Below are positions 24,426 through 51,755 of a DNA stretch of 64,000 bases, piece after piece. The position numbers and the translations under genes were made by a program. The DNA lies in contig WYER01000003.1 in assembly GCA_009903795.1 (NCBI GenBank), positions 8,637 through 72,636 of the forward strand. The letters run 5' to 3'. How positions within the stretch are numbered: position 1 is the first letter of the stretch; every line of letters starts with the position of its first letter. The notes beneath the pieces were generated by a model. That model was not told the DNA's origin, ran no database searches, and saw only the letters and a list, made by a program, of their open reading frames with translations. Source of the stretch: Nitrososphaerota archaeon. GTDB taxonomy: Archaea > Thermoproteota > Nitrososphaeria > Conexivisphaerales > UBA164.

Positions 24426-24916
24426 GTGCCGTTAACTTGATCCCGTAATATATTCACCTAATCCAATCAACAACAATTGACTTAATCTATTCAGACAAAT
24501 CATTTGATATTTGATGATATGCTGATCCAATTTCAATTATTAAGAACCTAAAGGCTCGCCAGTTACTTATATGGACAAATTTTGGCTTTCTACAAGTTCT
24601 TAAAAACTTTTGTCCTCTTTTAATATATCCTTCATCCTTTATATTAGGTTCTTCAGGTTCTGTTCGTATATAACATTATCTACCCCTGCAAGCATCAACG
24701 AAATAAATAGCTCCATCTATACAAATAGTCTTCATTATAAGTCTTCTTATGTACGATTTGTGTGTATCTACATATGTTTCCCACTAATGTTTATTTCTGT
24801 TTAATCAATAAAGATAAACTTTAATTATAAACATAAAGTGCTATTGGGGTAATTTTTCCGGTTTGTACAATTATTTGCTAGAAATAGAATCAATAAATTT
24901 TAAGCTAACGACACCC
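24426..24916 (-). mobile_element. Decayed, internally deleted copy of the IS element found at 39042-39800
   Basis: It is colinear by eye with the reverse complement of the IS. Matching blocks are gtgccgttaactt, caatcaacaa.aattg.cttaat, aaattttggcttt, acccctgc...catcaac, tgtttatttc.gttt.atcaataaa, aagtgctattggg, ggtttgt..aat.atttgctagaaa and aataaattttaagc..taacg.caccc. No intact ORF. Confidence 0.65.
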
Positions 24917-37800: not shown

Positions 37801-37929
37801 TTATTTTAATTGTTTTTAATGTTAATTTAATCTTTTTCTTCATAAAGCTATGTCGTCAAGCTTTTAGGTTCTTCTTTAACTATGTGTTCATTAGGAAATT
37901 ATTTCAACATCACTCTCAAATAAACAGGT

Positions 37930-37987
37930 TCTAGAATGGATTAAGCAAATTTTGTTGATTAATATAAGCAATCAGCTTAAGTTAACG
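37930..37987 (+). repeat. Solo right-end fragment of the IS element
   Basis: ttctagaatggattaagcaaattttgttgatt...cttaagttaacg matches the IS right end tctgaatggattaagccaattttgttgatt...cttaagttaacgg. Confidence 0.55.
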
Positions 37988-38690: not shown

Positions 38691-38766
38691 TGCGGCGGGC
38701 GGGATTTGAACCCGCGATTTTCAGCGTGGCAGGCTGACGTCCTAGACCAGGCTAGACGACCGCCGC
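38691..38766 (-). tRNA. tRNA-Gly (anticodon GCC)
   Basis: The reverse complement is GCGGCGGTCGTCTAGCCTGGTCTAGGACGTCAGCCTGCCACGCTGAAAATCGCGGGTTCAAATCCCGCCCGCCGCA, a clean 76-nt cloverleaf. Confidence 0.9.
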
Positions 38767-38998
38767 TTTCTGACATCCTCTCCGTCCCAAAGGGCTATGT
38801 TACCTTAGGGCGGATCATAGGTTCGTGGTTTATCGCCTTCATCTTCATCACTTCATAGCTAGTGGGATTTACCAACCCCGCTCCGTTCGTCCAGCGATAG
38901 ACCACGGGCTGTGCCTCCAGCCACTTACCCCTATCCTCATTGGACTCAGCGATATGTAGAGCCCTCGTGGGGCGTCCCTCTACGGGACACAGTTTAAT
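38767..38998 (-). ncRNA. Unclassified GC-rich structured RNA candidate (reduced RNase P RNA is one hypothesis)
   Basis: This is about 230 nt with no ORF, and it is markedly more GC-rich than its surroundings. The ends pair (CUGUGUCCC at 38984-38992 with GGGACGGAG at 38780-38788). Internal hairpins include GUAGAG...CUCUAC and GGCUG-GAGGCA-CAGCC, and there is a GUGAUGA K-turn-like motif. A TATA box lies 26 nt upstream, and the RNA sits 13 nt upstream of tRNA-Gly on the same strand. Confidence 0.5.
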
Positions 38999-39017
38999 AC
39001 GCTTTACAATGTCTTAG

Positions 39018-39029
39018 TATTTAAATTTT
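39018..39029 (-). promoter_or_regulatory. Archaeal TATA box (AAAATTTAAATA on the minus strand) for the structured RNA / tRNA-Gly unit
   Basis: Read directly. The spacing of about 26 nt to the first paired nucleotide of the RNA fits archaeal promoter geometry. It lies only about 12 nt from the IS left end. Confidence 0.5.
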
Positions 39030-39041
39030 ACCCAGCCTCTA

Positions 39042-39800
39042 GGGGTGCCGTTAACTTAAGGCTTAAAATTTATTTTTCAGTGGGGCCCTCTTTCTAGCAA
39101 ATGATTACACAAACCAGAAAAAGGACCCAATAGCACTTATACTCTATGCCTTATATCTTTATTTCTCCAGTTTGAGCTTAAGAAGGGCTTCCCATGTACT
39201 CGAGCCAATAATCAAGAGAAGCCACGTTGCAATATGGAAATGGATTCAGAAGTATTCTTTCGTATTAGATTCCTTTGACGTTGACAAACACGATGTTAAT
39301 TCCATATTTATTGATGAAACTGAAATAAACGTTAGAACGAAGCTTGGTTATGGGTAGCGTATGAACCTCAACTCAAAGCGTTCCTATCATTCCACATAAG
39401 CTGGCACCAAACTCTTTCGATGCATACTATTTCATAAGGAAGCTTGTAAAGTATTGCAGGAAGACTATCTACACAATCGGAGCTCTTTGGTACGTTGATG
39501 CATGTAGGTGGGCAGGGGTAGACATGTTATGTATGGAGAGAGCCTGAAGAACTTCATGTAAAGGATGAATGAATACATAAAGGACAGGACAAAAGCTTTT
39601 GACGACATTTTCCCGTGCAAAAAGCCAAAATTTGAGCACGTAAAGAACTGGTTCAAAGCATTCAGATTCTTCTATGTATTCACAAACGAGAAAATTGGTT
39701 CAGCTCCACTTTCAAATGAACAGCTGTCTGAATGGATTAAGCCAATTTTGTTGATTGCAAGCATGAGGTGATCAGAATGAGCTTAAGTTAACGGCACCCC
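39042..39800 (+). mobile_element. IS element (IS6-like by transposase remnants) with 19-bp terminal inverted repeats and a disrupted transposase
   Basis: The left inverted repeat (IRL) is GGGGTGCCGTTAACTTAAG at 39042-39060. The right inverted repeat (IRR) is CTTAAGTTAACGGCACCCC at 39782-39800, its perfect complement. TCTA flanks both ends. The transposase reads across three frames with stops: ...SLSLRRASHVLEPIIKRSHVAIWKWIQKY...IFIDETEINV..., then W.AYEPQLKAFLSFHIS, then ...YIKDRTKAFDDIFPCKKPKFEHVKNWFKAF. Confidence 0.75.
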
Positions 39801-40132
39801 TCTAGAAGAGGCGAGGCTTTTGTTCGTTTTGTAAACCTAGAAGAATATTCATACACTATTAACTATAAACGCTTCTTATCCTTTTATTTTATATCAATCG
39901 GCATGCCACAATAAGTTTGAGAATCCTTTTTCGTACCTTAGCCATTTCTCTTTGTGAAACTTTTTAGGCTAGCGCATTGTAATTAAGCCTCCTTAGATGA
40001 CCATCTTGTTGCCAACGTTTTTATCCTTTCGCTCTGAGAATTTTGCGATATAGCCCACATTGGCTCTGTGCATTTTGTAAAGCTTAATGATTTAATGATT
40101 TCATGTTTAACTTAGGCAAAGGTTATGCCTTT

Positions 40133-40270
40133 TTATGAACATGTAGTGTGCCTTTTGCATTTACTGTAAAGCTGCTTTACCCTTCTGGTTGATATTCCTG
40201 CTGCGTCTGCAATTTCTCTGTTAGTAAATTTTTCTTTAGCGTTAAAGATTGAAATGATCTTTGTTAAGCA
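40133..40270 (-). pseudogene. Orphan helix-turn-helix gene fragment (45 codons, no start)
   Basis: My own translation gives CLTKIISIFNAKEKFTNREIADAAGISTRRVKQLYSKCKRHTTCS*. This is a typical HTH (REIA...GIS..TV) such as a transposase or resolvase N-terminus. It has no Met and an upstream stop. Confidence 0.3.
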
Positions 40271-40364
40271 TCACAGCATGCTTTTTTATCAAATTTATCC
40301 ATAATCTGCTTAATTTGTTTACAAACTAGATGTTTAAGAGTATGAGATAATTTCCAAATAAATT

Positions 40365-40844
40365 TTATACTATCTTTGAATCCCAGATACCTTTGTCTAC
40401 TTCCTGAATTACTTCTTTCGGGTTTTTTCCTTCAACCTTTATACCCATAGAAACGCAGGTTCCCAGAACAGTTTTTACTGCTCCCTTGAGCGTCTTCGCG
40501 CTCATGGCGTTAAACTTGGCCTTTGCGACTTTAACTACGCTCTCAAATTTTATGTCTCCTACCCACTCTGTTCCTGGTTTACTTGAACCTTTCTGGGCGT
40601 TTGCTTCTTTCAGCAACAACGCTGACGTTGGCGGCAGTTTAACGATTACATTAAAGGATTTGTCTTCACCAACCTCAACTACTACAGGCACTTTCATACC
40701 CTTGTACTCAGCCGTTAGCTCATTAATTTTCTTAACAACCATCGGGACATTAAGGCCCAAAGGACCTAGAGCTGGCCCTATAGGTGGCCCTGCGTTGGCT
40801 TCTCCACCTACAACAACAAAGTTAAAAGATTTCTTTTCTGCCAT
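40365..40844 (-). CDS. rpl11: Ribosomal protein uL11
   Basis: 159 aa with VVGGEANAGPPIGPALGPLGLNV. Confidence 0.95.
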   Translation of the reverse strand: MAEKKSFNFVVVGGEANAGPPIGPALGPLGLNVPMVVKKINELTAEYKGMKVPVVVEVGEDKSFNVIVKLPPTSALLLKEANAQKGSSKPGTEWVGDIKFESVVKVAKAKFNAMSAKTLKGAVKTVLGTCVSMGIKVEGKNPKEVIQEVDKGIWDSKIV

Positions 40845-51241: not shown

Positions 51242-51755
51242 TAACTTAATTTAAATTTTTTGTATCAATATGTGTCACTAGTTCACCACATGCTTGTAAT
51301 CCTCAAAATTGGTCTAATAAATTCTGCTAGCTGCTCATTAGATTATGTCATTGGTCCATTTAATCGTTGGTTAACATATAGAAGAACCTAAACGTTCTGA
51401 ACAAGTTACTTATATGGAAAAATTTTAGATTTATGCAAGTTCTTAAAGATATTTTTCATATTCTTATATATGAGGTTCTTTAAGTTCTGCTCTTACATAA
51501 ATAACATTATCTACCCTTGCAAGCGTCAACGTACCAAAAAGCTCCGTTTGTGCAAACAGTCTTATTAAAAGTTTTTTAGGAACGCTTTAAGTTGGTCTCC
51601 CTAATTCTTTAACTAATGTTTATTTCAGTTTGATCAATAAAGATAATCCTTTAATATAAAAAAGTGCTATTGGGTTAATTTAACCTGTTTGCACAATTAT
51701 TTGCTGGAAATAAAGCCAAATAAAAAATAAATTTTAAGCCCTAAATTAACAGCAT
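51242..51755 (-). mobile_element. Second decayed copy of the IS element, abutting the aspartokinase start codon
   Basis: It is colinear by eye with the reverse complement of 39042-39800 and with 24426-24916. Examples are catgcttgtaatcctcaaaattggtctaat, acccttgcaagcgtcaacgtaccaaa.agctcc and aagtgctattgggtt...tgtttgcacaattatttgctggaaat...aataaattttaagccctaaattaacagca. Confidence 0.6.

Follow-up and report, generated by a model that had tools for sequence, protein, structure and literature searches.

We analysed a 64,000-nucleotide stretch (hereafter the window) of contig WYER01000003.1 from a Nitrososphaerota archaeon, focusing on a GC-rich block without open reading frame (ORF) that lies on the minus strand, directly upstream of the tRNA-Gly(GCC) gene. 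A first-pass annotation had described this block as a structured RNA, either a strongly reduced RNase P RNA or a different and possibly novel one. The region is neither an RNase P RNA nor a new class of RNA. It is very probably the 3' two-thirds of a non-autonomous IS200/IS605 element, i.e. a palindrome-associated transposable element (PATE) akin to a miniature inverted-repeat transposable element (MITE), which derives from an IS1341-type insertion sequence (IS) carrying tnpB only and keeps the putative template of an omega RNA. The element has sharp boundaries, is multi-copy and mobile, targets TTAC, bears a hairpin near either end and is homologous to the C-terminal end of TnpB, the remainder of tnpB being lost.

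Ends, target site and copies of the element

Hot-spring metagenomes were scanned with a mixed exact and purine/pyrimidine pattern taken from the 3' part of the block, and 81 homologous stretches were retrieved, several of them sharing one contig (three copies within 7 kb on L065, two each on L076, L115 and L057). According to blastn, copies are 77-97% identical and 77 of them end at the base aligned to window position 38769-38770: every copy finishes with ...GAGGATGTCAG and then runs into unrelated flank, different each time. A common sharp 3' end followed by unrelated flanks is the signature of a transposable-element end and not of a housekeeping RNA gene, and the many insertion contexts support the mobility of the element. 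The block was also present in other samples of the same species (L031 and L111, 94-99% identity). A 20-mer, GTGATGAAGATGAAGGCGAT, additionally matched 22 IMG/VR viral contigs (L002-L023); the similarity covered only 26 nt (window 38832-38856), and these matches were dropped as a chance likeness to a purine-rich stretch of GAT/GAA repeats.

Two classes were distinguished according to where the alignment starts, i.e. a 'long' class from window position 39042 or 39033 and a 'short' class from 38960. The long class is gene-less and measures ~295 nt when no other IS is nested in it; it comprises the left end, a segment with a TATA-like box, and the tail of tnpB with the right end. Its first ~40 nt and last ~190 nt are common to the tnpB-bearing copies of ~1.45 kb. 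The left end, TTAC followed by AAAAYGAACGAAAGCCTCGCCTCTTCTAGAGGCGGGG, is ~40 nt long, forms an imperfect hairpin (palindrome CCTCGCCTCT-TCT-AGAGGCGGGG) and is found also upstream of tnpB in full-length copies. Among metagenome copies, TTAC abuts the left end (TTAC followed by AAAAYGAACGAAAGCCTCGCC...) in 30 of 34 distinct junctions, the sequence further upstream being unrelated. The right-end hairpin has a stem that resembles that of the left end (CGCCT.../...AGGCG).

In every copy, the sequences flanking the left and right ends are unrelated to each other, and no target duplication was found; for the window element, the left flank reads ...GGTTTAC and the right flank AAAGCGG.... The element spans positions 39830 to 38770 on the minus strand, in the spacer between the gene for ribosomal protein L11 and that for tRNA-Gly, and is interrupted by an unrelated 759-bp IS. 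PATEs arise through core deletion of IS605-type elements (PMC3119063), and the family displays their hallmarks: (i) terminal inverted repeats are lacking and imperfect palindromes lie near both ends, which are not inverted copies of each other; (ii) insertion takes place 3' of a fixed TTAC with no duplication of the target; (iii) the ends are common with a protein-coding IS605-type element whose core has been deleted, leaving too little room for a transposase.

A divergent right-end copy from another lineage (77-79% identity; L054:2476-3006, L080:8720-9251 and L102:2062-2590) precedes, by ~270 nt, a tRNA-Gly that shares 90% identity with that of the window; the palindrome GAGGCTTTTG...CAAAAGAGGCTT opens the spacer between them, and insertions may recur upstream of tRNA-Gly. 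Another conserved sequence, ...GTTTTCAAGCCGTGCCTTGAAAGCCTCTTTTCTTCTATTG, was encountered near TnpB elements in L041, L046, L049 (e.g. L049:5918), L075, L098, L105, L110 and L112. Similar to the left-end hairpin, it may mark one end of a related family of elements.

The tnpB-derived block and its putative omega RNA

The GC content of the block, on which the first-pass annotation had relied, was confirmed, with values of 0.53-0.54 over 38700-38999 (200-nt windows) against 0.31-0.40 in the flanks (~53% vs ~36%), as was the lack of any ORF of at least 40 aa on the minus strand of 38767-39000. Its TATA-like box AAAATTTAAATA upstream of the GC-rich stretch is likewise present on that strand (39018-39029). 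The same annotation had named alignment to a decayed protein-coding gene in relatives as evidence against its proposal, and tnpB is such a gene. In at least 12 loci, copies of the short class contain a same-strand ORF of 417-424 codons that stops 20 nt before the boundary. Its ~420-aa product is a TnpB nuclease, as indicated by Pfam (OrfB_IS605, 1.2e-26; Cas12f1-like_TNB, 2.7e-17), by TnpB/Cas12f chains of the PDB (E down to 1.8e-13) and by the motifs IDLG..NLAT, ENTSKxCSxCG and NADxNGAxNI of the RuvC and zinc-finger domains. The corresponding relic of the window (38959-38789) translates as LHIAESNEDRGKWLEAQPVVYRWTNGAGLVNPTSYEVMKMKAINHEPMIRPKVT*, and tblastn detected no tnpB beyond it in the 64-kb window. 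In full-length copies, GC content steps up from 40% (tnpB body) to 53% (final 195 nt). Among gene-less copies, the 60-codon frame is still open in 15 of 26; broken frames and small indels in 10 of the 26 amount to ordinary decay, and a comparison of open frames between the copy classes did not discriminate.

Omega or right-end RNA arises from the 3' end of tnpB together with the right end of the transposon, the guide being the flank just past the boundary (PMC10097598). PATEs 'often encode omega RNAs', upon which TnpB acts in trans (PMC10055086), and the archaeal equivalents were first seen as sense-overlapping transcript RNAs (sotRNAs; PMC12558985). The block occupies this very position: it lies on the tnpB strand, covers the gene's 3' end as well as the right end, and stops at the transposon boundary; a cognate TnpB is encoded by metagenome relatives, and none within the window itself. 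The retained ~190 nt would thus be the scaffold template of a TnpB omega RNA. The ~95-nt segment specific to gene-less elements holds TAAAATTTAAATAC and a small GNRA-capped hairpin (within 38961-38992), which reads UCCC-GUAA-GGGA in most copies; the position of the TATA-like box (39018-39029) suggests that it may act as a promoter.

Regarding structure, the single-sequence fold (-79.6 kcal/mol, z = -1.96) is marginal, 7 of 200 shuffles being equally stable. The consensus structure, which was derived from the same sequences on which it was scored, is paired in 94.6% of cells vs 37-44% when the partners are slid. The right-end hairpin (38813-38782) is paired in 93.5% of cells and includes three compensatory pairs (e.g. 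C-G to U-A and U-A to C-G), and a variable hairpin stays complementary in three length variants (GUGG-GUAA-CCAC, GGGUGCG-AUU-CGCACCU and GUGGG-UAAAU-CCCAC). Helices proposed by the first-pass annotation fared unequally. The GGCUG/CAGCC hairpin is paired in 99% of cells among 21 family members and never varies, while in the 21 gene-less copies GUAGAG/CUCUAC reaches 56% and is not conserved. Pairing of the two ends of the block (CUGUGUCCC with GGGACGGAG) can be formed in the window copy; across the gene-less copies it occurs in 46% of cells, i.e. about background, against 82% for the local alternative GUCCC/GGGAC, and its 3' arm belongs instead to the local 12-bp right-end hairpin (38813-38782). 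The claimed pairing does end 13 nt before tRNA-Gly, as had been stated, but the true boundary lies at 38770, 3 nt before the tRNA, and the element reaches upstream to 39830.

When Rfam was searched, only the tRNA was matched at the gathering score; at E<=10 (551 nt searched), the tRNA was accompanied by noise only (e.g. RAGATH-33 at 14.9 bits), with no match to RNaseP_arch, RNaseP-T, signal recognition particle (SRP), C/D or other snoRNA, or sotRNA (RF02656/RF02657) families. The missing omega/sotRNA match in this search counts against an omega RNA, as do several further observations. Double-change cells number 7, a value reached by 27 of 500 shuffles; compensatory pairs are confined to the right-end hairpin, which would also be conserved as a DNA hairpin for TnpA; the family has little depth (77-93% identity) and is in part under coding constraint; the window copy is mismatched in two consensus helices; and neither tnpB nor an IS200-type tnpA motif accompanies the element in the 64-kb window, a crude search for the latter being negative in ~93 fetched loci as well. 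PATEs are mobilised in trans by TnpA, a Y1 (HUH) transposase.

Part of this evidence favours a rival explanation, namely that the block is an inert transposon scar left over from the deletion of tnpB, with no functional RNA, no use by TnpB, an incidental TATA-like box and a tRNA-Gly gene served by some other signal. Weak covariation (RNAalifold covariation term -0.85), a structure taken from the consensus, the helix mismatches and IS-split left end of the window copy, a window devoid of tnpB and tnpA, and the broken frames and small indels of 10 of the 26 gene-less copies all speak for it. However, although the subterminal hairpins suffice for TnpA-mediated mobility, each of the ~26 gene-less copies keeps the ~190 nt and the TATA-like box, and conservation of these parts equals or exceeds that of the ends (mean pairwise identity among gene-less copies of 0.888 for the tnpB-derived part, 0.886 for the TATA segment and 0.85 for the transposition ends). 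Moreover, the rise in GC content of full-length copies falls where the omega-RNA scaffold is expected, and between the TATA-like box of the element and the tRNA there is no second A/T-rich box that looks like a promoter. We therefore regard an inert scar as unlikely and retain the omega-RNA-bearing PATE. Its expression and omega-RNA activity are nonetheless what we infer, because covariation is weak, the structure comes from the same sequences and the sole compensatory helix would also be conserved as a DNA hairpin.

Under the PATE reading, the element inserted after TTAC (39834-39831) in the L11/tRNA-Gly spacer and was split by the 759-bp IS at a later time. Transcription would start from its TATA-like box (39018-39029) and the transcript would leave the right end, so that the 'guide' would read AAAGCGGCGGUCGUCUAG... 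(first bases of the tRNA), while read-through would also yield a tRNA-Gly precursor. With this RNA, a TnpB supplied in trans would cleave the empty site (TTAC and AAAGCGGCGG...), recombination restoring the element; the predicted TnpB target is TTAC-AAAGCGGCGGTCGTCTAG DNA. GC-richness may reflect an RNA-structure constraint in an apparently thermophilic host, superimposed on the 3' end of tnpB. That the host is thermophilic is indicated by the hot-spring metagenome matches and by tRNAs of 66% GC.

Two other readings, the RNase P RNA put forward by the first-pass annotation and a kink-turn RNA, have next to nothing left in their favour. A strongly reduced RNase P RNA, co-transcribed with its substrate tRNA, would account for the loose likeness of AGAUGAAGGCGAUAAACCACGAACCUAUGAUCC to conserved regions (CR) IV and V of Escherichia coli and for the possible pairing of the ends in this copy. 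The CR-IV/CR-V-like stretch nevertheless consists of TnpB codons (M-K-M-K-A-I-N-H-E-P-M-I-R, MKMKAINHEPMIR), in keeping with the homology of the block to the C-terminal end of TnpB; the terminal helix is not conserved; the CR-I element GAGGAAAGUCC and ACAGAA (CR-V ACAGAA...GGCUUA) are absent; no RNaseP_arch, RNaseP-T or other Rfam family matched; and at least 77 mobile copies in unrelated contexts, several per contig, do not befit a single-copy housekeeping gene, nor does the absence of the block from the syntenic site of L027, L036 and L030. A pseudoknot resembling P2/P4 of RNase P (UAUCGC/GCGAUA, AUAGG/CCUAU) could be drawn and was rejected, UAUCGC being UAUCCU in the same species and the block being derived from coding sequence. 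Equally improbable is a kink-turn (K-turn) RNA, i.e. a C/D-box or H/ACA-like small RNA (sRNA) binding L7Ae through the GUGAUGA present at 38851-38845: this motif reads GUGAUAA in a second sample of the species, mostly GUCAUGA and otherwise GCGAUGA or GAGAUGA across the family, changes that fit synonymous or conservative codon changes and not a conserved C box, and neither a D box at the required spacing nor an Rfam snoRNA match was found. The more general proposal of that annotation, a different structured RNA co-transcribed with the tRNA, holds in so far as the block lies at the site of an omega-RNA template behind a TATA-like box; such an RNA would belong to a known class, and the terminal helix and K-turn put forward for it fail.

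The tRNA-Gly locus and the nested insertion sequence

The L11 gene lies at 40365-40844, and the proteins nearest to its product come from uncultured Nitrososphaeria and Conexivisphaerales. In the sister genera L027 and L036 (L11 86% identical) and in L030, tRNA-Gly follows the L11 stop codon by 41-140 nt with no element in between, while ~1.6 kb separates both genes in the window; this spacing assigns the finding to an insertion relative to the sister genera. A tRNA-anchored scan of representative genomes gave seven loci with a related tRNA-Gly, none of which has the GC-rich block. In the reconstructed pre-insertion sequence (...GCGTTTATAGTTAATAGTGTATGAATATTCTTCTAGGTTTAC joined to AAAGCGGCGG...), an A/T-rich box stands ~35-45 nt upstream of the tRNA. 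This box is now more than 1 kb from tRNA-Gly and no A/T-rich box was found in the 60 nt before the gene, for which reason tRNA-Gly is most plausibly transcribed by read-through from the TATA-like box of the element. A bolder proposal, to which we give little credence, is that the element has been co-opted as promoter and 5' leader of tRNA-Gly(GCC). The insertion, 3 nt upstream of the tRNA, would have cut off the old promoter, and a chimeric omega-scaffold/tRNA precursor would be formed. Cleavage by RNase P at the 5' end of the tRNA would compete with the making of a guide against the empty site of that tRNA gene, and through TnpB acting in trans, excision would either kill the cell or correct itself, an addiction-like lock of a transposon on a tRNA gene.

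In a related genome (GCA_002506605.1, L11 87% identical; L034:4966-5457), the place directly 3' of L11, where tRNA-Gly would be, is taken by an assembly gap and a TnpB-like ORF, the latter recognised by eye. The spacer between L11 and the element in the window (39835-40364) is without ORF of at least 40 aa and matches L106:4617-5167, L049 and L113 with 72-73% identity along ~560 nt. The L106 region contains a helix-turn-helix (HTH) ORF and the beginning of another, of 198 aa, in which a transposase-like W-H-V-D-W...D-H-G...P-Q-T-N-G pattern was noticed by eye; as its counterpart holds these ORFs, the window spacer may represent a third IS of which a decayed fragment is left. Integration of a virus or plasmid at the tRNA was considered and rejected, no duplicated tRNA segment having been found.

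The IS nested in the left-end hairpin is flanked by TCTA duplications (39038-39041 and 39801-39804) and contains decayed transposase ORFs at 39172-39357 and 39565-39771. Diverged copies of it occur in the window at 24426-24887 and 51283-51754, with a fragment at 37893-37960. Family members lacking the interruption read ...CTCTTCTAGAGGC... at this site. Since it splits the left-end hairpin, the window copy is probably immobile now. The same nesting was observed at other genomic sites (L042:11-1051 and L043:672-1691), and L040:1493-1777 represents the L043 site with the IS absent; the IS thus either repeatedly targets the palindromic TCTAGA of the PATE left end or was lost from it. A similar pattern, 'mobile elements target mobile elements', has been reported for Haloquadratum (PMC3119063).

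Elsewhere in the window, the minus strand of 508-650 encodes a tRNA with a 74-nt intron, which Rfam detected (49 bits) and ARAGORN missed; its anticodon loop, CUCCAGA, identifies it as tRNA-Trp(CCA). The intron bears CUGA and GUGAAGA-like boxes and recalls the C/D-box sRNA of other archaeal tRNA-Trp introns.

Table 1. Features of the interrupted element and of its surroundings in the window
Feature	Position	Strand	Evidence or remark
TTAC target (transposon-adjacent motif)	39831-39834	minus	abuts the left end; 30/34 distinct junctions
Left end part 1, 5' arm of the left-end hairpin, AAAACGAACAAAAGCCTCGCCTCTTC	39805-39830	minus	matches left-end consensus AAAAYGAACGAAAGCCTCGCCTCTTCTAGAGGCGGGG
Unrelated 759-bp IS in the loop of the left-end hairpin, later arrival	39042-39800		19-bp terminal inverted repeats GGGGTGCCGTTAACTTAAG
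Loop and 3' arm of the left-end hairpin, TAGAGGCTGGGT	39030-39041	minus	alignment to uninterrupted copies
TATA-like box AAAATTTAAATA, putative archaeal promoter	39018-39029	minus	TAAAATTTAAATAC or close variants in the gene-less class
Segment specific to the gene-less class, local hairpin GUCCC-GUAGA-GGGAC	38961-38992	minus	absent from tnpB-bearing copies
TnpB C-terminal relic, 57 codons, premature stop	38789-38959	minus	tblastn with the 417-aa TnpB of L057: 77% identity, E 3.6e-20
Putative omega-RNA scaffold template, last ~190 nt of tnpB and right end, ...GAGGATGTCAG	38770-38960	minus	77-97% identity to 77 copies
Right-end subterminal hairpin, 12 bp in the consensus	38782-38813	minus	3 pairs with compensatory changes
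Flank serving as putative guide, AAAGCGGCGGUCGUCUAGCC	38750-38769	minus	3 nt and first 17 nt of tRNA-Gly; known TnpB mechanism (PMC10097598, PMC10055086)
tRNA-Gly(GCC)	38691-38766	minus	Rfam tRNA, 65.3 bits, and ARAGORN; starts 3 nt past the element end

Significance and comparison with known systems

GC-rich islands without ORF in the AT-rich genomes of thermophiles are the classic signature of structural-RNA genes. An identical signature is produced by the right ends of IS200/IS605 elements, which are omega-RNA templates, and by the gene-less derivatives of these elements; both ought to be excluded before such genes are called. The elements described here very probably constitute, in hot-spring Nitrososphaeria, a PATE family that bears guide RNAs and a TATA-like box of its own and is covered by no Rfam model, and they support the idea that omega RNAs can spread apart from their nuclease. 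The juxtaposition with tRNA-Gly offers a natural test case for outward transposon transcription taking over a neighbouring gene. The finding does not bear on the evolution of RNase P: archaeal type A and type T RNase P RNAs are alike only in size, in GC-richness within an AT-rich genome and in tRNA adjacency, whereas the block has neither the conserved P4 sequences nor a covariance-model match and is multi-copy, mobile and coding-derived.

IS608 of Helicobacter pylori, the prototype of IS200/IS605, carries both tnpA and tnpB and has two end hairpins that resemble each other, as here. It inserts 3' of TTAC, and its right end finishes in a TCA-purine tetranucleotide, TCAA, vs TCAG here. Unlike IS608, the relatives of our element carry tnpB only, tnpA not having been found by the crude motif search.

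Haloarchaeal sotRNAs (Rfam RF02656/RF02657), which are today counted among the omega RNAs (PMC12558985), are likewise archaeal sense-overlapping transcripts at the 3' end of an IS1341-type tnpB; they differ in phylum and sequence family, and their models were unmatched here (E<=10). The omega RNA of ISDra2 (PMC10097598) has a same-strand template over the 3' end of tnpB and the right end, which stops at the boundary, with a scaffold of 116-231 nt vs ~190 nt here. The likeness is one of template position and length, sequence similarity being undetectable and tnpB itself being lost from our element.

A close parallel is offered by the PATEs of Haloquadratum walsbyi (PMC3119063) and Geobacillus stearothermophilus (PMC10055086), which also have no terminal inverted repeats, no target duplication and subterminal hairpins, share their ends with tnpB-bearing IS, are multi-copy and too short for a protein, and keep the omega-RNA region; those of Haloquadratum are, in addition, invaded by another mobile element, as is the window copy. 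The present family differs from them in its host, an uncultured hot-spring Nitrososphaeria lineage near Conexivisphaerales, in its ~95-nt class-specific TATA-box segment, which is missing from the full-length relatives found, and in the tRNA gene that its window copy adjoins.

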